Source: a phage. Taken from it: a stretch of DNA of 64,000 bases. Positions 34,488 to 60,169 of the stretch are shown here, piece after piece. Below the pieces are notes generated by a model. It did no database searches. It worked only from the letters and a program-made list of their open reading frames with translations, and was not told the origin of the DNA. Positions within the stretch are counted from its first letter, which is position 1, and every line of letters starts with the position of its first letter. A program made the translations under genes and the position numbers. The stretch lies in sequence record PZ452611.1. The stretch is one strand, 5' to 3'.

Positions 34488-36917
34488 ATGAGCATGTGGT
34501 CTTTCGATTTTGAGTCATCCGGTTTGCTGGAAGACCCAGATCTTTATTATCACTGCGGCCTGTTTAAAGAGTTGAATAAGAACCGTTTTATGCTGTTCCT
34601 TCCTCTGAATGACCGCACACACTACTCCGAGGAGGATATAGAGAAGGCTAAGAACTTTATTCTGGCAAAGAAAACTCTTTATAAGGATTTTGAAGTTCGC
34701 ATAGCAGATTTTTCAGAGTTGGAAGGTTGGCTTACAGGCAATTCTGACTGGTCACCCACAGCTTTGAACTGCCACAACTGCTACAGCTACGACTTTATGC
34801 TGATGGAGAGATTGTCCGGTATTCATTTTGATATGTTCCGTGATCCTAAGTGCATGGGGACTATCAACGACCACCAGGTTAATCTGTTTGATACGTTGGC
34901 GATGAGCCGAATCTTGTGGCCTGATCGCCCTTTACCAAAAGGTTGTCCGGACTCTGTATTCAACCCGGTTACTAAGAAAATGCAGCCTGTTGGTCCTCAC
35001 GGCCTTATGGCATGGGGCTACGCCCTTGGTAACCAGAAAGTTCAAATTGATGACTGGCGCGATCTTCCGTTGTGGAAGTATGTGGATCGTGTATTCGAGG
35101 ACGTTATCATCCAGGAGCTGCTCTGGAAAGAGCTGGTAGCGGAATCAAAAGGTGTATTCTACGGCAAATCTGACATGCAGAACTTTATGTACGATCCAGC
35201 CAAAGAGAAGCCGAAAGGGTTCAAGAAGATCACCTGGAAGAACGCATTACGTCGAGGCATGCTGCAGCACTTCCTGATGGAGCTGCAGGCCCGTCAGGGT
35301 GTATACTTCGACATAGATGGAGCTATTGCTTTACGTGACCGTTGCGATGCGTGGATGAAAGAAATCGCTGATCGTGTTGAACCACAACTACCTTTAAAAG
35401 AGCTGTCAATGTCTCAGCGGCCCAAGTTCCCTGAAAAGCCGTTTAACCAAGACGGGACAATCTCTAATAATGGTTGGAAATGGTTAAAAGATAAGCTTGG
35501 CTATCCTGTAGACATGAGTGCTTTAGAGTTCAAAGCCCCGCCTAAGCGAGCATTTACCTCTACAGGAGATGTCAGCAAGATGGGGATAAAATGGTGTGAA
35601 GAGATGGGCTGCAAAGACCCCGATAAGATGGCTGATTTCTTGAGAGGCTATATTAAGGGCACCTCCACACCACAACCCTTACCTAAAGAGCTGATGGATC
35701 AGGCAATAAGTGATCTGCAGCAGAAGCGAATGCCTGACTGCAAGATACCTATGAAAATCAGCAATCAGGACGACATCAAGCGATACCTAATCAGTGCTGG
35801 TTGGCTCCCAACAATGTGGAGAACTAAAGATGTAACTAAAGACAGCAAGAAGAAAGCTTTACCTGATGCAGATGTTGATGCACGAGTATATGCATATATG
35901 GACGAGCTTTTGGAGTCAGAGTATTGTGACCTAATTATCAACTTCTGGAACAAAACTGATGCTAAGTTCCAGACAACCGTGCACAAGTTCCGAAGCTTTC
36001 CTAACTCCGAAAGGATTAAAAAGGAAGTATTCGGGAAAATACGTAGAAAAGCCAGGGCACTTATTACTTCTCCGCAACTGAAAGATACGTTTGGACACCT
36101 GTGTCCGAATCTTGAAAAATTGAACGGAGAGATGGCTAAAGATATCGTCTTGTGGTTATCATTGCGAAACCGCAGATCGGTCCTTGATCCAATCAAGGAG
36201 GATAAGGTTGATACTGGTCTTCTTAATCACCCACGTTTGAAGATTGACCATAAGCTTCCTGCTAAAAGCTCTGGATTAACAAACACTTCCAGACAGAAAC
36301 ACAGTATTTGTGCAAACATGCCTAAACCATCTCCTAAAGTGGTTATGGGTAAAGAGATGCGTAGTCTGTGGGGTGTTCCTCCGGGATACTTTGAGATCGG
36401 TATTGACGGGTCCAACTTAGAGCAGCTTATCGGGGCTTGGGGTGCCTTTGAGTTCGACAACGGCTTGTATTATGATGTTGTAAGTAACGGAGACGCACAC
36501 CAAAACAATGCTGAGGCATATACAAAAGTAGCAGGCAGAGAGGTGTCCCGTAACGACGGTAAACCTATCACGTATGGGGTTATGTACGGGGCACAAAAAG
36601 ATAAAGTTGCAGATATGCTGGACATCTCCCCAGAGTTGGGACAAAGGGTAATCGATGCACTCTGGGATGCCAACCCAGGTCTTAAGGGGCGCAAAGAGGA
36701 TCTGGAGAAATTCTGGGAAGCAACAGGTAAGAAGTTTATCTACTCTTTTGATGGTCATGCTATCTGGACCCGATCTAAACACTCTTTACTTAATGCATAC
36801 CAACAAAATGGCGGTGCATCGTTGTGTGACTTAGTTGGAATACTCATGCACCACCAGATGGTGAAGCGTGGGTGGTACGATGAAGGTGTTCGTCGTATTA
36901 TTTATTACCATAAATAA
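34488..36917 (+). CDS. DNA polymerase, family A, with N-terminal 3'-5' exonuclease domain
   Basis: 809-aa ORF, RBS aaggag; Exo I FDFESSG, Exo II HNCYSYDF; Pol motif A IDGSNLEQL, motif B RNDGKPITYGVMYGA (K...YG..YG), C-terminal YDE. Confidence 0.75.
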   Translation: MSMWSFDFESSGLLEDPDLYYHCGLFKELNKNRFMLFLPLNDRTHYSEEDIEKAKNFILAKKTLYKDFEVRIADFSELEGWLTGNSDWSPTALNCHNCYSYDFMLMERLSGIHFDMFRDPKCMGTINDHQVNLFDTLAMSRILWPDRPLPKGCPDSVFNPVTKKMQPVGPHGLMAWGYALGNQKVQIDDWRDLPLWKYVDRVFEDVIIQELLWKELVAESKGVFYGKSDMQNFMYDPAKEKPKGFKKITWKNALRRGMLQHFLMELQARQGVYFDIDGAIALRDRCDAWMKEIADRVEPQLPLKELSMSQRPKFPEKPFNQDGTISNNGWKWLKDKLGYPVDMSALEFKAPPKRAFTSTGDVSKMGIKWCEEMGCKDPDKMADFLRGYIKGTSTPQPLPKELMDQAISDLQQKRMPDCKIPMKISNQDDIKRYLISAGWLPTMWRTKDVTKDSKKKALPDADVDARVYAYMDELLESEYCDLIINFWNKTDAKFQTTVHKFRSFPNSERIKKEVFGKIRRKARALITSPQLKDTFGHLCPNLEKLNGEMAKDIVLWLSLRNRRSVLDPIKEDKVDTGLLNHPRLKIDHKLPAKSSGLTNTSRQKHSICANMPKPSPKVVMGKEMRSLWGVPPGYFEIGIDGSNLEQLIGAWGAFEFDNGLYYDVVSNGDAHQNNAEAYTKVAGREVSRNDGKPITYGVMYGAQKDKVADMLDISPELGQRVIDALWDANPGLKGRKEDLEKFWEATGKKFIYSFDGHAIWTRSKHSLLNAYQQNGGASLCDLVGILMHHQMVKRGWYDEGVRRIIYYHK

Positions 36918-37184
36918 CATTGTGGCTTCATAGAGTAATCTATGTCGAATAACCTCTTTAACTGCGGGAAGCCTAAACCTTATGGCAAGGTAATCCGCAA
37001 CGAAGCGCTCAAAAGAGCGAACGCTCAGAGGCCATTCCGAAAGGAAGTAGACCAGCAAGTGCGGTCGAAATGGGAGGATTCCTGTGGTTGCTTATCATAG
37101 GAATATGAGATGGTCCGATCCTACGTGAAAACGTATGGCTATGCACGTAATGGTGCGGGGTAGCTTAACGACCTACCTGAACTA

Positions 37185-40720: not shown

Positions 40721-41991
40721 TGAGCGTTATTCAACAATTCGCTAACCCAATGAATCCGCGTGAAACTGTTTTACTGGCTCACGGCATGATTAAACGTGTT
40801 AGCATCAAGCCTATCAAAGGTGCTGATCCTACAACAGGTATTAAAACCACTGTGTGGCAAGGTAAGAAAATTGAATCCAGCCACACCATCTCTTTACTGA
40901 TTTCTGAACTGGATTCCTCTGATAACCTGCTTCAAGGTGGTGAAGAGGTCTGGATCAGCATGGGTGATAAGCTGCTTAAACCAGGTCATCAAGACTCTGT
41001 CTCTGTTAAGATTGATGACAAGTGGGAAACCGTAACGCCAGGATGGATCGTAAATATCCCTTTGAAGGCAAACGAGCATAACGGTAAGACCTATTACAAA
41101 GGCTCACTGGCTAAGATGGTTAAGCTGGGCGCAGGAGAGGCTCCAGCAGCGACTCAGCAGCAAAAACAGCAACAAGGTGCACAATCACAAGGCCAGAAGC
41201 AGAAACCTCAGCAGAATGCCAATCAGGACGTTTTACGCATCTATGGCGATGTGACTCAGATTGTTGGCAACGTGGTTACTGTTAATGACCACAAGATTGG
41301 CGAAGGTGCCATGGTTGTCACTGATGAGCAGCTTAAAGACCTGGTGGTAGGTGGTCGTGTTGCAGCCATTGTTGACAAAGACACTGGAAACATTATCAGT
41401 GGTTTCAAAGCCTATCCACCTAAGGCAGAGAACGGCACTCAAGGCTCTGGTGGCAAGCGTAAATCCTCTTACGACCCTATCGGTGTGGAAACGGGGCATA
41501 GCATCAATGCGTTGCAAATCATCCTGGATCGCGGGTTTAAGGTAGACGACCCACTAGGAGTGGCTAAAACACTGCACGTAGTCACCATTGAGCTTAAGAA
41601 AGAGTATGCTCAAGCCACCAACCGAACTGAAGATGAAGTAGGTGCCAGTGTCGGTAATGCGGTGTTGAACGCTTGTCGCCGTATTGACAAGAAAACGAAA
41701 GTTGATGATTTTGCAGCGGCAATTACTGCAGAAGCAAAAGATGTCTTGACTAATCTGGCTGAGCCGTTGTACGATTGGATCAAGAACGGTGCTGGGTCAA
41801 CCGACCATCAAGAACCTCAGGCTGCCAAACAGGAAGCAGCTCCACAGCAAAACACTGTAGACGCTCCTCCTGTAAATGATGAGGAAGATGACCCGATGGA
41901 TCAGAATCCGGCGCAGTATGACTTCTGTGATGACATACCTTTCGCTCCGGTAGGTTTGCAATATGGCAAAAGTAGAATCCACGCATTGTAA
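40720..41991 (+). CDS. putative DNA-binding protein (possibly SSB-like)
   Basis: 423-aa ORF; Gln-rich linker ([20 protein letters not shown]) and near-C-terminal acidic D-F-C-D-D-I-P-F resembling the DDDIPF tip of bacterial SSBs; lies in replication module; assignment tentative. Confidence 0.4.
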
Positions 41992-42586
41992 GAGGTGCAT
42001 CAAGTGCGGGGAGGTGAAAGACCTCTCCGAGTTCTACAAACACCAAAAGATGTCTGACGGTCATCTTAATAAGTGCAAAGAGTGTTGCAAGAAGGCCAGT
42101 AGGGAGGCTGACCAATTTTCCTACGACTCTTCAGAAAAAGGTGTAATACGCGTGCTGTACAAGGCTCAAAAGTGCAACAGCAAGCAAAGAGGTCACCCGC
42201 CTCCGACTTACACCAAAAAAGAGTTTAAGGAGTGGCTATACCTAAACGGTTACAAAGAGTTGTATGATCAATGGGTAGCCAGCGGATACGACAAAAGGAA
42301 AAAGCCTTCTTGTGATAGGATAGATGATTTCAAAGGGTACTCTTTTGATAATATCCGTTTAACTACCTGGGGAGAAAATAAAGACAAGCAGACGGAGGAT
42401 ATTCTGTTGCATAGAAGCACCAGCGGTAGACGGTGTAAAAATGTAAGGAGACTGGACATGAATGGCAACGTTCTTAAAGAATGGGTATCCCACAATTCTT
42501 GTAGAAGAGAAACCGGAATATGTGTTGATTACTACATTCATGAAAAAATTCCAGCTCCCGATGGATACCTCTATGAATACTTTTAG
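41963..42586 (+). CDS. HNH_3-like homing-endonuclease-like protein with N-terminal Cys cluster
   Basis: 207-aa ORF; N-terminal CKRCIKC...CKECC zinc-binding-like cluster; [25 protein letters not shown] matches HNH_3-type core and the motif in ORF 18304-19347. Confidence 0.5.
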
Positions 42587-42601: not shown

Positions 42602-42629
42602 GCCCTGCCCGAAAGGGTGGGGCATTTTT
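42602..42629 (+). terminator. putative intrinsic terminator (repeated element, copy 2)
   Basis: same GCCCTGCCCGAAAGGGTGGGGC core as 31552-31578, followed by ATTTTTG. Confidence 0.55.
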
Positions 42630-43427: not shown

Positions 43428-43853
43428 ATGATCTATGAAATTCCAAAACTGATTCGCGACGATGCCCAAAACGCCCACACCTTTATCATGGGCAAGCGCA
43501 TGGATATTATTTGTCATAAAGATTTCTGGGAAAGTAGTTACTTCACAGAGTATTTTGGTAAACTGGACAATGGTCTGCTGATCCAGTTCTACACCGACGA
43601 GGAAAACAATATCTGCTGGGAGTTCGAAACTGAAGATATCCATAAACTTCTCACCTTCCTCGGTATTAAGGTTGAGGCCAAGTTTGAAGAAGGTGAGTGC
43701 GACGATTGTGGATTCTACGAGGTAACAGATTTCTATCTTCCGAGTGGTGAGAACCTTTACTATGAAAGCCACTTCGGTAACTCCAATATGCCACAGTGCT
43801 GGACTGAGTTTTTTGAAATTGCGGAAGAGGAGCTGGCATACCGTGATTATTGA
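43428..43853 (+). CDS. hypothetical acidic protein
   Basis: 141-aa ORF, RBS ggagaa. Confidence 0.45.
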   Translation: MIYEIPKLIRDDAQNAHTFIMGKRMDIICHKDFWESSYFTEYFGKLDNGLLIQFYTDEENNICWEFETEDIHKLLTFLGIKVEAKFEEGECDDCGFYEVTDFYLPSGENLYYESHFGNSNMPQCWTEFFEIAEEELAYRDY

Positions 43854-44301
43854 TACTGTAGAGGGAGATCTAATCTCTCTTTTCAAGAAAGGGTCGGGCC
43901 ACATGATCCACGGTTGTAACTGCTTTCACACAATGGGTGCAGGCATAGCGAAAGATATTGCCCGTGAGTTCCCTCAAGCACTGGCAGCCGACAAAGAGAC
44001 TGCCTATGGTAATCTGGACAAGCTGGGTATGTTTTCTTGTTGGGAGCATTTTGCCAAGAACAGGGTCGTATATGGAATCAACCTGTATACCCAGTTCTAC
44101 CCAGGGCCCAATGCTGAATACTTCTCAATAATGAAAGGTTTTGAGCGAGTCAACGAGGTATTCAAAGGTGTGTCATTGCCGTTCTACATTCCTAAAATTG
44201 GATGCGGTATTGGCGGTCTAAAGTGGGAACATGTAGAAGATGTAATTAATCTTGCAACCACAGATATTGATGTGGTTGTAGTAGAGTACAAAAAGTGTTG
44301 A
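43843..44301 (+). CDS. macrodomain protein (ADP-ribose binding/processing)
   Basis: ORF 43744-44301; GTG at 43843 overlapping upstream stop; VIIDTVEGDLISLFKKGSGHMIHGCNCFHTMGAGIAKDIA and IPKIGCGIGG match macrodomain N-x-x-N ... G-x-G-(I/V)-A and glycine-rich diphosphate-binding loops. Confidence 0.6.
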   Translation: MIIDTVEGDLISLFKKGSGHMIHGCNCFHTMGAGIAKDIAREFPQALAADKETAYGNLDKLGMFSCWEHFAKNRVVYGINLYTQFYPGPNAEYFSIMKGFERVNEVFKGVSLPFYIPKIGCGIGGLKWEHVEDVINLATTDIDVVVVEYKKC

Positions 44302-44522: not shown

Positions 44523-44735
44523 ATGAAAACCTGCATGTGTGTGTCCACGCAATCGGATAATCAAGGGCTGTTTGAAGAATATCCAGTAATAGATGGGCCT
44601 AGCATATCCTTGTGCGACTTCCTGACTGGGACACGTGGTGGCTGTACAAAAGTGATGAATATTCAGGCTATTACTTTGCAAAAACATTTACCGGAGAGTT
44701 GGTATTTGTTCTGGAGGACTGAGGAGGGCTTATGA
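44523..44735 (+). CDS. hypothetical small Cys-containing protein
   Basis: ORF 44496-44735; internal ATG at 44523 overlaps stop of an unlisted 56-aa ORF (approx. 44356-44526). Confidence 0.35.
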   Translation: MKTCMCVSTQSDNQGLFEEYPVIDGPSISLCDFLTGTRGGCTKVMNIQAITLQKHLPESWYLFWRTEEGL

Positions 44736-44926
44736 GAAACAAGAAAGAACTTTACTCTGGCGAGTGGATCAACGATCAACAGATTGGAGAGGTAACCTGC
44801 TTCCGATGTTTTACCAGGTACAATATTAAAACTGCACCAAAAAGTGTTCCAAAGACTGATGGTTATTACATAAAAGAACCTTATTGCCCAAAATGTAAAT
44901 GCCGATTATATTGGAGTAACCTGTAA
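44732..44926 (+). CDS. small zinc-ribbon-like protein
   Basis: 64-aa ORF, RBS gaggag; CFRC ... CPKCKC pattern. Confidence 0.45.
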   Translation: MRNKKELYSGEWINDQQIGEVTCFRCFTRYNIKTAPKSVPKTDGYYIKEPYCPKCKCRLYWSNL

Positions 44927-44930
44927 AAGA

Positions 44931-44958
44931 TTGACATCTGAAAACTGCAGTGTATAAT
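44931..44958 (+). promoter_or_regulatory. sigma70 consensus promoter
   Basis: TTGACA - 16 nt - TATAAT immediately after stop of ORF 44732-44926. Confidence 0.6.
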
Positions 44959-57349: not shown

Positions 57350-57367
57350 TTTCTTAACTAAACTATC

Positions 57368-57396
57368 AGGGGCTTTAAAAGGCCCCTTTCTTTTGT
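57368..57396 (+). terminator. putative intrinsic terminator ending the early-type cluster
   Basis: AGGGGC-tttaaaa-GGCCCCT hairpin followed by TTCTTTTG. Confidence 0.6.
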
Positions 57397-58329
57397 CTGT
57401 ATTTCTCCTACCACAAACGGCCCAGCCTGGCAAGTGGAATAATTGACTAGCCAGCAATTACCAACACTGTACAAATATACATATAAAATAACTATTGCAT
57501 AATCTTTCATCTTGTGGTAGCAGGGCCATTTTTACACGTTTTCCTTCCAAAATTGCACGTAATGCAGCTATTGCATAAAATTTAACCTGATGCACATCTT
57601 CAATAGCTTGTCAACAACTAAAAATCTTTATAAGTCATACACTTACATAACCACAAAAGCGTGTTCTACGTGAAAAATCGAGTATAACTATAGCCGCCAG
57701 ATCTCAGAATTTACGTACGCTCACCATTCTATAGTCTGCTAAGTATTTATTCCAACCATAGAATAACAGAATAGTCAATACCTGCATAAAATAATTATTC
57801 GTGTAAACTGCATAACATAAATCAGCCGGGGTGTCAACATTTTTCGTAAACGGCTCGAAATTATCACTGTGAGCTATCATAAACAGAGAAATCTTTAGTC
57901 GTCTAATGTTTACTGTACGTTACTATACTAACTGGAATCATTAGATGACTAATAAAAAGATAAGAAATCATTAACAATGCAATTGTTTTATTCATAACAA
58001 TAAGGCAACTATGCAAACGAATGGCATGGCGCGACGGAGTCGCGACATAATATAAAAGCAGTAACCATCACCCCCGTGATAGTTTGTCTGCAAACTATTA
58101 ATCAGATCATAGTTGCCTTGTATTTAGTTAATCATGACATAAACTCAGGCATAGCCTTCGTCTCGAGGATGTTAACAAGCAAGGCAACTATAGATCTTCT
58201 AATAGTTGCCCTGCTTTTATATTATGTCATAGAAACACCCGAAGGGGTGACCAAAGGTCACCTGGCATAGCCAGTGAAATATTGTAAACAAGTTAATTAT
58301 TATCATGCAAACGAATGGCATGGCTTATC

Positions 58330-58500
58330 ATCTCTGTGTAAATAGTTTGTTTGTAAACAGTTTATACGTGAACAGTTAGCTGTGTAAACTATCAGGCATG
58401 TAAGCTATTGAGCATGTAAACAGTAAAGGTCGTGAACAGTAAGCGAGCGAATAGTAATGGCGTGAACAATGACAGCGTAAACAGTCAGGCATGTCAATTA
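58330..58500. repeat. iteron-like array (about 11 direct repeats, period ~15-16 bp)
   Basis: GT(A/G)AAC(A/T)(G/A)T cores (gtgtaaatagt, ttgtaaacagt, cgtgaacagt, gtgtaaactat, atgtaagctat, atgtaaacagt, cgtgaacagt, gcgaatagt, cgtgaacaat, gcgtaaacagt, atgtcaatta) at regular ~15-16 bp spacing in a non-coding stretch. Confidence 0.65.
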
Positions 58501-59953
58501 TGTTCAGTGTGTCACCATTATGTCATATTGTGTCAGACAAGTTTTTCTCCTCTTTGTCAAGTGCTGCATGAAAAATTTACAATCTGGTATGGTAGCATTT
58601 TTGCGGCCCTGTTTACATTCAGTACTGTATGTATAAGCCTTGTTGTGTGGGCGCTTAGACGTCTAGACGGTTGGAAGTCTGCAGGTCAATATCTAATCTA
58701 TTGGTTGCTAACTATATCCCACACAAATAGTAAGAAATGCAATTGTTATATGCGTAAACTGTAACTCATGTTATCAATCCCTGTATGGATCGCCAGTGGT
58801 GCGCATAATAGGTATTATGTTAAATTGCCAGTAATGATAACTATTCTCACAGTGATAGGTATTCTCATTCAACCCCACAAGATAGGTTGCAAATGTTGTG
58901 CCACTGTGTGAACGGCCTCGCCTATTAATTTGCCTCACTGCCTCGATATTTGAGAATTATTATAAGAATGAGAAGTATTCCCATTTCGTCCGCCTGGCAG
59001 CACTCCTGTAGGTCAGGTCAAAATCGGGAGAGAACTGGACCTGTTCAGATATTTCTGGCTGGCTCTTCAGGTCTGTGTGGGAAAAGCCGACCCCTCCGGC
59101 GGCGGGGAGGGGGTCAATTAAAAAATTTACGGGGCATATGAAGCGCTCTTCAGGTAAGGCATGTATTATGGGATGAAACCCTCTTCAGGAAATGATATTT
59201 GTGGGTGTGATATTTGCTGGAAAGCTAGATATGACTGGACTCCTGGCGGGGCAGGGGTAGTACAGACAGGGGAAATATGGGGGATGTAGTTGGGTAAATT
59301 GATCAGGCAGGTAGAGTATGGAATATGTTACGAGTATGTTAAATATGGAGGGTGAATATCTGCAGGATTTGTGTGTAAAATCAAAGACTTAAGTGGTGTT
59401 GTGGTATTTTCTATAAATAATTCAAGTTTAATAGGTGATATTTGTCCCTATCCACTTTGTGTGGTAAACAGATTCAGATGAGATTGGTTTACGAGTGTAT
59501 ACATAATATACAAATTAAAGATACAAGAAACCCCCCTCCCCCTTCGGCTACCATTCACCTTTTCCTCTGACTGGTACTTAAACACTTATTCAGACTCTTC
59601 AGGTTATCACCCATATATCATATGGCAGTGACTGGTGTCCTCCGGCCCCTCTTTCGTCACCCGTCCGCTTCGCCATGCTAATGCCATAGCCAATGGTTCG
59701 GTTGTTCACCCTGTTCACTCAGGTGTATCTCCATACCCCTTCAAACCGAAGAGAACAGAAAACCCGAATTACTCGGTAAAAGAAAAGAGAAGAACTTAAT
59801 TTTATCAGGATAAGCAAGAATGTCAAGGCATGACTGCTCACTAAACAAGCAAACAGTCATGTGTGGGAGGTAAGTGATTGTGGTGGTAGGAAATTTAGTT
59901 GAAAGATGTGTTATAGGTGCTCCCAGCACTTTAGCCGGGTAGCTAATTGTGTG

Positions 59954-60169
59954 TCAGTCCAGCGGTTCATCCTCTACTTCACTGAAATCAATGTTCATGG
60001 TCTCTTCCCAACCATCGATCTCAGCACAAGAGTGAAGTTCTTTAGGGTTTACTCCCAAAGCCTCAGCAACAGAGTCTATATTTAACACCTCTGGCAGGTA
60101 TGATTCATCGAATTCAAGGTAAATCAGGCCACGAGTGTTGTCAGCCCCACCAAATATTTCTATCTTCAT
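59954..60169 (-). CDS. hypothetical acidic protein
   Basis: ORF 59954-60235; internal ATG (M23) preceded by agaggag chosen as start. Confidence 0.4.
   Translation of the reverse strand: MKIEIFGGADNTRGLIYLEFDESYLPEVLNIDSVAEALGVNPKELHSCAEIDGWEETMNIDFSEVEDEPLD

Follow-up and report, generated by a model that had tools for sequence, protein, structure and literature searches.

The window analysed here, a stretch of 64,000 nucleotides of phage DNA (PZ452611.1), carries at 43843-44301 on the plus strand a gene that was confirmed as a genuine, stand-alone macrodomain of 152 amino acids. The best reading of its product, which we hold with moderate confidence, is that of an orphan antitoxin-like hydrolase that would remove DarT2-type ADP-ribose from phage single-stranded DNA. 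Across the window the DNA matches E. coli O157 typing phage 5, or rV5 (Vequintavirus), at 100% identity, and there the exact CDS is already annotated as "macro domain protein" or "tk.4 phosphatase". The annotation as a macrodomain and the concept of counter-defence are both public already; the idea is sound and not new, and the weight of the finding for the field is incremental and confirmatory. If the reading is true, the rV5-like phages would, like the T-even and the PhiKZ-like phages, possess an orphan antitoxin-like enzyme against DarTG2. The rV5-like phages are broad-host-range candidates for E. coli O157 typing and therapy, and the reading therefore bears on host-range prediction for DarTG-bearing clinical E. 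coli.

The gene and its macrodomain fold

The open reading frame begins with GTG and ends, as read from the sequence, with a TGA stop at 44299-44301 on the plus strand. Its coordinates are those of the deposited CDS AKE45542.1 "macro domain protein" (KP869103.1; ECTP5_00668) and also those of rV5 gp204 "tk.4", and we describe the gene as Tk.4/AdfM-like. A longer mechanical reading frame from 43744 was rejected on the grounds of the deposited CDS and the alignment with T4 Tk.4. The GTG at 43843 is favoured because the N-termini of the two proteins align, MIIDTVEGD of rV5 standing against MIVKYIKGD of T4. A putative Shine-Dalgarno-like sequence, GGAAGAGGAG, was read at 43823..43832 (+), 10 nt upstream of the GTG, a position within the 3' end of gp205, the preceding gene.

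The earlier note on this DNA had called the product a macrodomain from two strings, EGDLISLFKKGSGHMIHGCNCFHTMGAGIAKDIA and PKIGCGIGGLKW, both of which are present in the 43843-44301 reading frame, and the call was borne out by sequence, profile and predicted fold (AF2 and Foldseek). The protein gave a significant match to the Pfam Macro family PF01661 (25.9 bits, gathering cut-off 22) and matched PHROG 335 with E = 4e-60. A large protein database yielded 303 homologues, most of them with PF01661, and about 2,700 phage records carry a member of the family. The match to the macrodomain family is far above chance. When the family profile was compared with the macrodomains of the PDB, BT1257, SCO6735, DarG, TARG1 and Poa1p were matched with E = 2e-15 to 5e-12, and every match with E < 1e-9 was to one of these five. 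The structure prediction that the note had proposed as a check returned a macrodomain fold with a pLDDT of 96.2 and a pTM of 0.91, in which strands and helices alternate to give an alpha/beta/alpha sandwich, and the glycine-rich loops of the ADP-ribose-binding type, HGCNCFHTMGAGIA and PKIGCGIGG, are present. Foldseek gave a probability of 1.00 to many solved macrodomains, including Poa1p, TARG1 and DarG, and its list was headed by Poa1p, TARG1, DarG, BT1257 and SCO6735, which make up the ALC1-like class.

The rV5 protein belongs to this ALC1-like or TARG1-like class and not to the MacroD, PARG or macroH2A classes. The MacroD-type macrodomains have the first-loop motif GGGV-D, and the first loop of the rV5 protein is MGAGIA, unlike that motif. 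A JGI label that appears on homologues is "O-acetyl-ADP-ribose deacetylase (regulator of RNase III)". This MacroD/YmdB-type label was rejected as a generic COG transfer, as the comparison of the family profile with the PDB gave no MacroD, YmdB or Af1521 chain at E <= 0.01.

Active site and proposed mechanism

The alignment of 109 homologues, down to about 36% identity, contains 13 invariant columns, including N26, Q84, G120 and G122. The first ADP-ribose/phosphate-binding loop, H23-A36 (HGCNCFHTMGAGIA; codons at 43909..43950, +), holds the family-invariant residues G24, N26, C27, G34 and A36. In alignments to SCO6735, DarG and Poa1p, His23 corresponds to SCO6735 His24 and Poa1p His23, and Asn26 to SCO6735 Asn27 and PhiKZ AdfM Asn23. 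The segment N80-Y93 (NLYTQFYPGPNAEY; 44080..44121, +), defined by invariance, column mapping and loop lengths, has N80, Y82, T83 and Q84 invariant in the family. Gln84 occupies the position of DarG Lys80 and TARG1 Lys84 and is followed by an 8-residue "PGPN" loop common to T4 Tk.4. The second glycine-rich, diphosphate-binding loop, P117-W128 (PKIGCGIGGLKW; 44191..44226, +), has P117, G120 and G122 invariant and G125 and W128 near-invariant, and Gly124 stands in place of TARG1 Asp125, the same as in DarG. In the catalytic-residue mapping that the earlier note had put forward, Asn26 and the glycine-rich loops were conserved, and the catalytic Lys of DarG and TARG1 was replaced by Gln84.

The motifs HxCNC, NxYTQ and PxIGxG place the rV5 protein in the Gln-type subclass, in which the residues equivalent to SCO6735 Gln85 and Asn27 are here Gln84 and Asn26, both invariant. 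It was reported that the Gln of SCO6735 is essential for the hydrolysis of thymidine-ADPr-DNA, the Q85A and Q85E variants being inactive, and that N27S is nearly inactive, the Asn locking the Gln (PMC9411070). The N23A change in PhiKZ AdfM also reduced activity (PMC13309987).

On this basis we suggest that gp204 would be a catalytically competent Gln-type ALC1-like macrodomain, expressed from a sigma-70-driven early or accessory region. A host DarT2-type toxin would ADP-ribosylate thymidines of the single-stranded replicating phage DNA; the cleft of gp204 would then take up the ADP-ribose, with the two glycine-rich loops gripping the diphosphate and Asn26 placing Gln84 against the distal ribose. 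The N-glycosidic bond between ribose and thymine may then be hydrolysed, leaving free ADP-ribose and replicable DNA.

A non-catalytic reader of ADP-ribose, or a remnant of evolution that no longer has a role, is the least probable explanation of this protein. The classical Lys/Asp catalytic dyad is missing, and the gene is dispensable on K-12, but an anti-defence gene would be expected to be dispensable on a defence-poor laboratory host, and both the breadth of the family among phage records and its invariant columns, which include Asn26 and Gln84 (essential in SCO6735), speak against a remnant. A role as a sponge for, or degrading enzyme of, immune signals derived from ADPR, such as gcADPR of Thoeris and His-ADPR, is also very improbable. 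Macrodomains bind ADPR derivatives, His-ADPR is sensed by host Thoeris II effectors via a macrodomain, and such signals have been proposed by Iyer et al. as targets of phage macrodomains. However, literature searches gave no experimental example of a macrodomain acting against Thoeris, and hydrolases of 1''-linked adducts have the same catalytic-type residues that are invariant here.

Genomic neighbourhood and transcription

The upstream gene gp205 (43428..43853, +) encodes 141 amino acids of a function-unknown family, PHROG 8157. Its 3' end overlaps the start of the macrodomain gene by 11 nt, and the two genes are probably co-transcribed. Their adjacency was found only in one near-identical contig (L011) and is lost outside the close relatives of rV5; the next relative (L012) has its gp205 homologue about 1.9 kb on the downstream side of the macrodomain gene. 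Since the adjacency is not conserved, the idea that gp205 is a constant partner, such as a split DarT-binding module, was rejected.

A strong intrinsic-terminator-like hairpin followed by a T-run was predicted by consensus scan at 42602..42623 (+), downstream of the endonuclease VII-like gene, and likely bounds, on the upstream side, the small transcription unit of the macrodomain gene. Beyond that gene, a perfect sigma-70 consensus promoter (TTGACA, 16 nt spacer, TATAAT) at 44931..44958 (+), which is the annotated rV5 promoter P205, starts the next unit. Therefore, the macrodomain gene stands in a host-RNA-polymerase-dependent (early-type) region.

Scans of ten neighbours with Pfam, PHROG and PADLOC gave no partner toxin or pathway near the macrodomain gene, only function-unknown families, the endonuclease VII-like protein and a phage zinc-binding domain. 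No ART, NADAR or DarT gene adjoins the macrodomain gene or is found in the rV5 annotation. Likewise, no NARP1 genes are annotated in rV5, and tblastn with Adps and Namat of Vibrio phage Gary and of VF16 against the window and the rV5 genome gave noise only (E >= 3). Genes for RNA ligase 1, a Sir2-like protein and a phosphoesterase are encoded elsewhere in the rV5 genome, the RNA ligase/Sir2 cluster lying about 50 kb from the macrodomain gene.

E. coli has several ART-based defences, and another reading is the removal of ADP-ribose from other macromolecules, namely from proteins (Glu/Asp-linked) or RNA (uracil-linked or other) modified by host ART toxins or phage enzymes. Macrodomains are often promiscuous, and two members of this class, SCO6735 and TARG1, have Glu-ADPr proteins and U-ADPr RNA among their substrates as well. 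On the other hand, rV5 has no annotated ART gene whose product would need reversal, the T4 homologue was a hit only with DarTG2 among the systems tested, and the CmdT-type adenine-ADPr on RNA has so far been described as irreversible. We consider this explanation improbable.

Comparison with known systems

The closest functional precedent for the proposed role is T4 Tk.4, which was named AdfM (anti-DarT factor, macrodomain) in the 2025 HIDEN-SEQ preprint (bioRxiv 10.1101/2025.11.20.689424). A transposon screen on DarTG2 hosts had T4 adfM as its only significant hit, the gene was conditionally essential on such hosts alone, and a clean knockout was sensitised to DarTG2; this evidence is genetic and comes from a preprint (bioRxiv 10.1101/2025.11.20.689424). 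T4 Tk.4 is 39% identical and 67% similar to the rV5 protein over the full length (residues 1-150, E = 6e-44). Both are stand-alone proteins of about 150 amino acids with an identical HGCNCFHTMG segment and with NLYTQ(F)xPGPNxEY, where Gln stands in for the catalytic Lys and is followed in both by the short loop. In full-length homology, motif set and orphan status gp204 agrees with Tk.4: neither has a toxin partner, and both genes belong to an early/accessory region and can be dispensed with on K-12. The two differ in phage family (Straboviridae versus Vequintavirinae) and in neighbours, which are vs-tk.4-tk.3 in T4, and the anti-DarTG2 phenotype is that of the T4 member only; literature searches found no DarTG2 tests on any Vequintavirus.

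The Bas54 orthologue (bas54_0092), 97% identical to the rV5 protein, is non-essential on K-12, all 31 of its 31 TA sites being disrupted, and 45 of the 46 sites of T4 tk.4 were disrupted on the same host. Such dispensability is typical of conditionally useful anti-defence genes. The earlier note had suggested a counter-defence against host ADP-ribosylation, and our analysis lends support to it, as the same role is reported for T4 Tk.4/AdfM and PhiKZ AdfM.

Another member of the same broad family (PHROG 335-type) is Adpp of Vibrio phage Gary (KNV71_gp137), the ADPR-1''-phosphate phosphatase of NARP1-AP, which dephosphorylates ADPR-1P in vitro and is needed by NARP1-AP against aRES. Its activity falls under the processing of NAD-derived nucleotides, which the earlier note had offered as a looser alternative. 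Gary Adpp is 32% identical to the rV5 protein, with the motifs HxCNC/Gln/PxIGCG in common and a similar DarG-HMM score. Its Gln stands in YGQ and is followed by a 7-residue insertion, and MGRG takes the place of the MGAG of rV5. In the operons of Gary and VF16 the order is Adps, macrodomain and Namat (NARP1), whereas rV5 has neither Adps nor Namat.

The rV5 protein could accordingly be read as an ADP-ribose-1''-phosphate phosphatase like Adpp or Poa1p, converting ADPR-1''P to ADPR, with the substrate coming from RES-domain NADase defences (aRES) or from RNA-repair chemistry (the RNA ligase, Sir2-like and phosphoesterase genes). Several observations point this way. In addition to the motifs in common with Gary Adpp, Poa1p heads the Foldseek list and has H23 and the CNC motif in common with rV5, and the "phosphatase" label of PHROG 335 and RefSeq reflects such a reading. 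Iyer et al. also argue that phage macrodomains mostly target small ADPr derivatives, and ADPR-1''P activity is common to many macrodomains in vitro. However, Adpp helps only by feeding ADPR into NARP1, of which rV5 has no Adps or Namat homologue, the RNA ligase/Sir2 cluster is distant, and the closer relative T4 Tk.4 gave a DarTG2-specific phenotype. Moreover, the sampled macrodomains that are linked to NARP1 or Namat have a longer loop, and rV5 and T4 Tk.4 have the short form. We regard the phosphatase as the main rival of the preferred reading, though an unlikely one.

Within the family, identity to the rV5 protein is 39% for T4 Tk.4, 36% for one NARP1-AP-linked macrodomain (L073) and 32% for Gary Adpp. 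In 195 of 200 bootstraps the distance from the rV5 protein was smaller to T4 Tk.4 than to Gary Adpp. The clades recovered by neighbour-joining are themselves solid, but one that joins rV5 with the T-even phages appeared in only 15 of 200, so that a sister relation of the two is unsupported. The sequence distances of the family are nearly star-like, and the substrate specificity of the rV5 protein is therefore something that we infer and not something shown. The DarG models of NCBIfam and PADLOC were rejected as a means of telling AdfM from Adpp; their scores are uninformative here (with PADLOC 46.5 bits for rV5, 36 for T4 and 44.6 for Gary).

The 8-residue loop after the Gln in rV5 is common to T4 Tk.4, DarG, PhiKZ AdfM and TARG1, and in all the NARP1- or Namat-linked macrodomains sampled this loop is 3-7 residues longer. 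A NARP1 link was found for none of 45 short-loop phage members versus 5 of 41 long-loop members (Fisher p = 0.02), an association that comes from few, partly related examples and non-independent samples. Genome context, that is, NARP1 present or absent, together with the loop-length signature may distinguish AdfM from Adpp. PHROG 335 bears the single label "phosphatase", and experiments now support two different anti-defence roles, AdfM and Adpp, for members of this one family that lie at similar distances in sequence; as a side result, this may help its annotation.

A broader version of these ideas is that the Gln-type Tk.4/PHROG-335 family hydrolyses any 1''-linked ADPr adduct and that the rV5 protein is bifunctional, acting on T-ADPr DNA and on ADPR-1''P, ADPr-RNA or ADPr-protein, with the length of the post-Gln loop tuning the AdfM or Adpp role. 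We put this forward tentatively and think it rather unlikely; if true, one protein of 152 amino acids would blunt several ADP-ribose-based defences. Literature searches found no phage macrodomain that had been assayed on synthetic T-ADPr or U-ADPr substrates.

The removal of DarT2-type ADP-ribose remains the reading that we prefer. Human TARG1/OARD1 and yeast Poa1p, which are eukaryotic housekeeping proteins, were the top structural matches (E about 1e-9, 21-25% identity). TARG1 has a loop of the same length as rV5, and its Lys84/Asp125 dyad is replaced by Gln84 and Gly124. The best PDB sequence and profile matches were SCO6735 of Streptomyces coelicolor (PDB 5E3B) and BT1257 of Bacteroides (2FG1/2AFC), about 22-27% identical to the rV5 protein. 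Like rV5 they have Gln at the position of the DarG Lys, and His24, Asn27 and Gly128 have conserved counterparts. SCO6735 was reported to cleave thymidine-linked ADPr from DNA and to rescue cells from DarT (PMC9411070). It is a cellular, DNA-damage-inducible gene, and its mobile loop is 5 residues longer, with Lys89 and Lys94; the loop has 8 residues in rV5 versus 13-14 in SCO6735 and BT1257. The DNA-binding Lys34 of SCO6735 is Ala33 in rV5 and its Val25 is Gly24, so that the features of DNA binding by SCO6735, an extended Lys-rich mobile loop and Lys34, are not found in the rV5 protein, which counts against the preferred reading.

The likeness to DarG, which the earlier note had drawn, is supported for the counter-defence role, which is reported for the T4 and PhiKZ proteins, and does not extend to the catalytic Lys. 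DarG (T. aquaticus 5M31/5M3E, M. tuberculosis 5M3I) and PhiKZ gp104 AdfM have the ALC1-like fold in common with the rV5 protein (TM 0.74-0.76), as well as the conserved Asn, the glycine-rich loops and the 8-residue loop. However, DarG of T. aquaticus and M. tuberculosis has Lys80 in a PTK motif where rV5 has Gln84 in YTQ, and because this Lys is absent the rV5 protein is not a DarG in the strict sense. The C-terminal DarT-binding domain of DarG (about 330-340 amino acids at full length) is also absent from the 152-residue protein; the NCBIfam DarG model gave 45.4 bits (cut-off 250) and matched at positions 3-144 only, the macro part, and the PADLOC model at positions 9-143 of 329. An adjacent darT gene accompanies DarG and not the rV5 gene, as no ART is annotated and the neighbours have no Pfam or PADLOC match except the zinc-binding domain. 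The DarG HMM gave 46 bits for rV5 versus 133 bits for PhiKZ AdfM, with identities of 21-24%. PhiKZ AdfM, an orphan phage macrodomain of an unrelated lineage, strips DarT2 ADP-ribose from DNA in vitro (PMC13309987).

The gp204 reading frame and its surroundings

The ORF at 43843-44301 (+) opens with a GTG start codon and runs for 152 codons before a TGA stop. Its translation contains both strings, EGDLISLFKKGSGHMIHGCNCFHTMGAGIAKDIA and PKIGCGIGGLKW, on which the earlier note had based the claim of a phage-encoded macrodomain. A Shine-Dalgarno-like element, GGAAGAGGAG, read from the sequence on the same strand, ends 10 nt ahead of the GTG, and the first 11 nt of the ORF also belong to the end of the upstream gene. 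Read from 43843, the N-terminus MIIDTVEGD pairs residue by residue with MIVKYIKGD of T4 Tk.4, and the deposited annotations also start the CDS there. An alternative GTG at 43744, taken from a mechanical ORF list, was dropped, as these two lines favour 43843.

A 4-kb piece spanning the gene showed 100% identity to Escherichia coli O157 typing phage 5 (KP869103.1) and 99.9% identity to phage rV5 (NC_011041.1), both belonging to Vequintavirus. The former labels the CDS 'macro domain protein' (AKE45542.1), and the latter records it as gp204, gene tk.4, product 'phosphatase', and remarks that it is 'similar to RB49 Tk.4'; the macrodomain observation is therefore already public. Some phage records labelled Campylobacter (e.g. 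MG065655) share ~94-97% identity with E. coli phages of the rV5 type, and seem to be mislabelled as to host or contaminated.

The gp204 gene lies within a long rightward block of small, mostly function-unknown genes punctuated by sigma-70-type promoters, downstream of replication genes (rIIB, helicase, methyltransferases, primase-helicase and DNA polymerase). A putative small transcription unit, gp207/206-gp205-gp204-gp203-gp202-gp201, is bounded by a strong terminator-like hairpin directly after gp208 (42602-42623, +) and by a perfect consensus promoter (44931-44958, +). No defence- or ADP-ribose-related domains were found in the neighbours of gp204. As a conserved partner, gp205 failed the linkage test; neither its overlap with gp204 nor its adjacency is kept beyond close relatives. 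The 64-aa gp201 (44732-44926, +) matches the Pfam 'phage zinc binding domain' (PF23903, 8e-22); in several T-even-like contigs (L018, L020, L021, L023, L025) a homologue follows the macrodomain gene 1-1.7 kb downstream, and the rV5 annotation notes that the RB49 homologue adjoins RB49 Tk.4, a proximity that amounts to weak conserved synteny. Upstream of the unit, annotations of gp208 (41963-42586, +) vary between 'endonuclease', 'endonuclease VII' and 'putative homing endonuclease'. The protein has a PHROG 1035 (endonuclease VII) match at 7e-41, and its Cys-rich N-terminal part also matches a Lar-like restriction-alleviation PHROG (2e-6).

Two further features were observed in the window. Rfam RF00028, a group I intron, is matched at 36902-37137 (+) with 64.7 bits (gathering score 50; E = 4e-14), and the match opens at the 3' terminus of the DNA polymerase ORF (34488-36917). 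As the rV5 RefSeq lists 'DNA polymerase' twice here, as gp223 and as the short gp220, a self-splicing intron seems to interrupt the polymerase gene. Between divergently transcribed blocks, a 2.6-kb stretch without genes (~57354-59959) includes an AT-rich dip, where GC is 0.32-0.37. Within the stretch, iteron-like GTAAAC(T/A)RT repeats recur with 16-nt spacing at 58368-58501, and one more copy lies at 58754; a 20-nt sequence is repeated exactly in direct orientation (58011 and 58305), and 58044-58061 and 58211-58228 form a perfect 18-nt inverted repeat. It is reported in the HIDEN-SEQ paper that the equivalent intergenic region of phage Bas54 tolerated zero transposon insertions (bioRxiv 10.1101/2025.11.20.689424). 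This stretch qualifies as a candidate for a replication origin or for an essential regulatory region.

Fold and active site

The macrodomain call of the earlier note was borne out by Pfam Macro (25.9 bits; gathering score 22), by an AlphaFold2 model built with 109 homologues (mean pLDDT 96.2, pTM 0.91), in which strands and helices alternate regularly, and by Foldseek, where solved macrodomains ranked first. The best PDB structures were Poa1p, TARG1, the DarG proteins of T. aquaticus and M. tuberculosis, BT1257 and SCO6735 (E 1e-9 to 2e-7, TM 0.68-0.76), with viral X-domains and macroH2A far lower in the list. Searched against PDB sequences, a family profile picked out the same set (E 2e-15 to 5e-12), with no MacroD/YmdB-type chain among the matches at E <= 0.01. 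These fold and profile matches make gp204 an ALC1-like (TARG1-like) macrodomain. The protein also matches PHROG 335 ('phosphatase', 4e-60), and it has 303 homologues in a large protein database and relatives in ~2,740 phage records (tblastn).

Across 109 homologues, with a lowest identity of ~36%, 13 columns are invariant: G24, N26, C27, G34, A36, D50, N80, Y82, T83, Q84, P117, G120 and G122. Alignment with solved relatives places Gln84 where DarG has its catalytic lysine (Lys80, 'PTK' motif) and TARG1 has Lys84; TARG1 Asp125 is replaced by Gly124, DarG being alike in this respect. Asn26 is the counterpart of SCO6735 Asn27 and of Asn23 in the PhiKZ AdfM (anti-DarT factor, macrodomain), and His23 that of SCO6735 His24 and Poa1p His23. 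In SCO6735, Gln85 is essential, Q85A and Q85E abolishing ADP-ribose removal from DNA thymidine; Asn27 is required for locking Gln85 in place, and a water-mediated mechanism, unlike the Lys mechanism, was proposed (PMC9411070). Since the equivalent Gln85 is essential, Gln84 is not a mark of decay. SCO6735 differs in its longer, Lys-rich mobile loop, which gp204 lacks, and in having Lys34 where gp204 has Ala33. We regard it as very probable that gp204 is catalytically active, hydrolysing a 1''-linked ADP-ribose adduct in an accessory, host-dependent role; that it is an inactive reader is hardly credible. On K-12, insertions disrupted 31/31 TA sites of the Bas54 orthologue, bas54_0092 (97% identical), which was classed as non-essential there; it was not depleted in the one comparison considered (log2FC +0.42, q = 1).

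Relatives and probable substrate

Transposon sequencing on a host with the DNA-ADP-ribosylating defence DarTG2 found tk.4 to be the sole T4 gene significantly depleted, and a clean knockout was DarTG2-sensitive; Tk.4 was named AdfM, enzymatic ADP-ribose removal from DNA being those authors' inference (bioRxiv 10.1101/2025.11.20.689424). On K-12, T4 tk.4 is non-essential (45/46 TA sites hit). Between Tk.4 and gp204, identity is 39% and similarity 67% across residues 1-150 (E = 6e-44). The name AdfM was independently given to PhiKZ gp104 too; this protein strips DarT2-made ADP-ribose off an oligonucleotide in vitro, N23A lowering the activity, and rescues DarT2-exposed cells (PMC13309987). It is a true macrodomain of the DarG-like, Lys type (DarG HMMs, 133-138 bits), only ~21% identical to gp204 and of a lineage other than Tk.4. 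Our literature search found no report of a DarTG2 challenge of any Vequintavirus.

For gp204, the analysis itself shows the ORF, fold, class, conserved set of active-site residues, orphan status and lack of NARP1, along with dispensability of the orthologue. We infer its catalysis, substrate and phenotype from T4 Tk.4, SCO6735 and PhiKZ AdfM, and by this analogy somewhat favour an orphan remover of DarT2-type ADP-ribose from phage DNA thymidine. The protein would be made early from host-polymerase promoters. When a DarT2-type host toxin ADP-ribosylates thymidines of phage ssDNA, the macrodomain would bind the ADP-ribose, Asn26 and Gln84 would position the distal ribose, and hydrolysis of the ribose-thymine bond would regain a replicable template. 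A toxin-binding domain would not be needed, because the phage has merely to erase the lesion.

A further characterised relative suggests another substrate. Adpp of Vibrio phage Gary is a Poa1p-like macrodomain encoded between Adps and Namat in a NARP1 operon. In vitro it turns ADPR-1''-phosphate into ADPR, and the operon needs it in order to overcome aRES, a RES-domain defence (bioRxiv 10.64898/2026.01.28.702374). Gary Adpp and the VF16 homologue fall within the broad family that includes gp204 and Tk.4; they are 32-35% identical, have HxCNC, Gln and PxIGCG motifs in common and match the same ~2,700 phage records. The uniform 'phosphatase' label on Tk.4-type macrodomains in such records (PHROG 335; RefSeq) stems from the A1pp/Poa1p motif and masks no fewer than two roles that differ by experiment, AdfM against DarTG2 and Adpp as the ADPR-1''P phosphatase of NARP1-AP. 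With Adpp and Poa1p as precedents, gp204 could be an ADPR-1''P phosphatase, which we consider unlikely: Adpp is useful only as a NARP1 feeder, and rV5 lacks NARP1, as searches for Adps and Namat in the window and the rest of the genome gave only tblastn noise (E >= 3) and none is annotated.

Identity to gp204 is 39.3% for T4 Tk.4, 36.1% for the L073 macrodomain inside a metagenomic NARP1-AP operon and 32.4% for Gary Adpp, and sequence distance by itself is weak evidence on the role. Neighbour-joining bootstraps recovered both the rV5-like clade (200/200) and the T-even clade (191/200) solidly, left their sister relation unsupported (15/200), and placed gp204 nearer to Tk.4 than to Adpp in 195/200; DarG-HMM scores did not discriminate AdfM-like from Adpp-like members. 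The loop from Gln84 to the next helix has 8 residues in gp204 (QFYPGPNAEY), as in T4/T2 Tk.4, other large enterobacterial myovirus contigs, DarG, PhiKZ AdfM and TARG1, and this short signature also speaks against the phosphatase. All NARP1/Namat-adjoining macrodomains found (Gary/VF16 type, L073, L061, L079, L118, L103) have 3-7 extra residues. NARP linkage was seen in 0/45 short-loop and 5/41 long-loop members (Fisher p = 0.02), an association that is suggestive only because the samples are non-independent. Taken together, NARP1 absence and the short loop favour the AdfM reading.

Removal of ADP-ribose from protein or RNA, for which the promiscuity of SCO6735 and TARG1 offers precedent, seems improbable, and degradation or sequestration of ADPR-derived immune signals more improbable still; gp204 may also be bifunctional. 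Outside the window, rV5 NC_011041.1 65706-69558 (L008 39607-43459) encodes a phosphoesterase, an ATPase, RNA ligase 1, a Sir2-like protein and a nucleotide pyrophosphohydrolase. These genes make up an RNA-repair/NAD-linked module like those that Iyer et al. discuss; it could yield ADP-ribose derivatives for a macrodomain to process, but is ~50 kb away from gp204.

Comparison with known systems

The macrodomain/Tk.4 annotation of gp204 and counter-defence in its relatives were already known. It is modestly new that one 'phosphatase' PHROG covers two experimentally supported anti-defence roles, AdfM and Adpp, at similar sequence distance, and that NARP1 context and post-Gln loop length may separate them. 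The protein would work like the DarG macrodomain, though it is not a DarG: it lacks the catalytic Lys, the C-terminal DarT-binding domain and the darT neighbour, and scores far below the DarG equivalog cut-off. It belongs to the Tk.4/PHROG-335 family of Gln-type phage macrodomains, whose T4 representative is the published AdfM.
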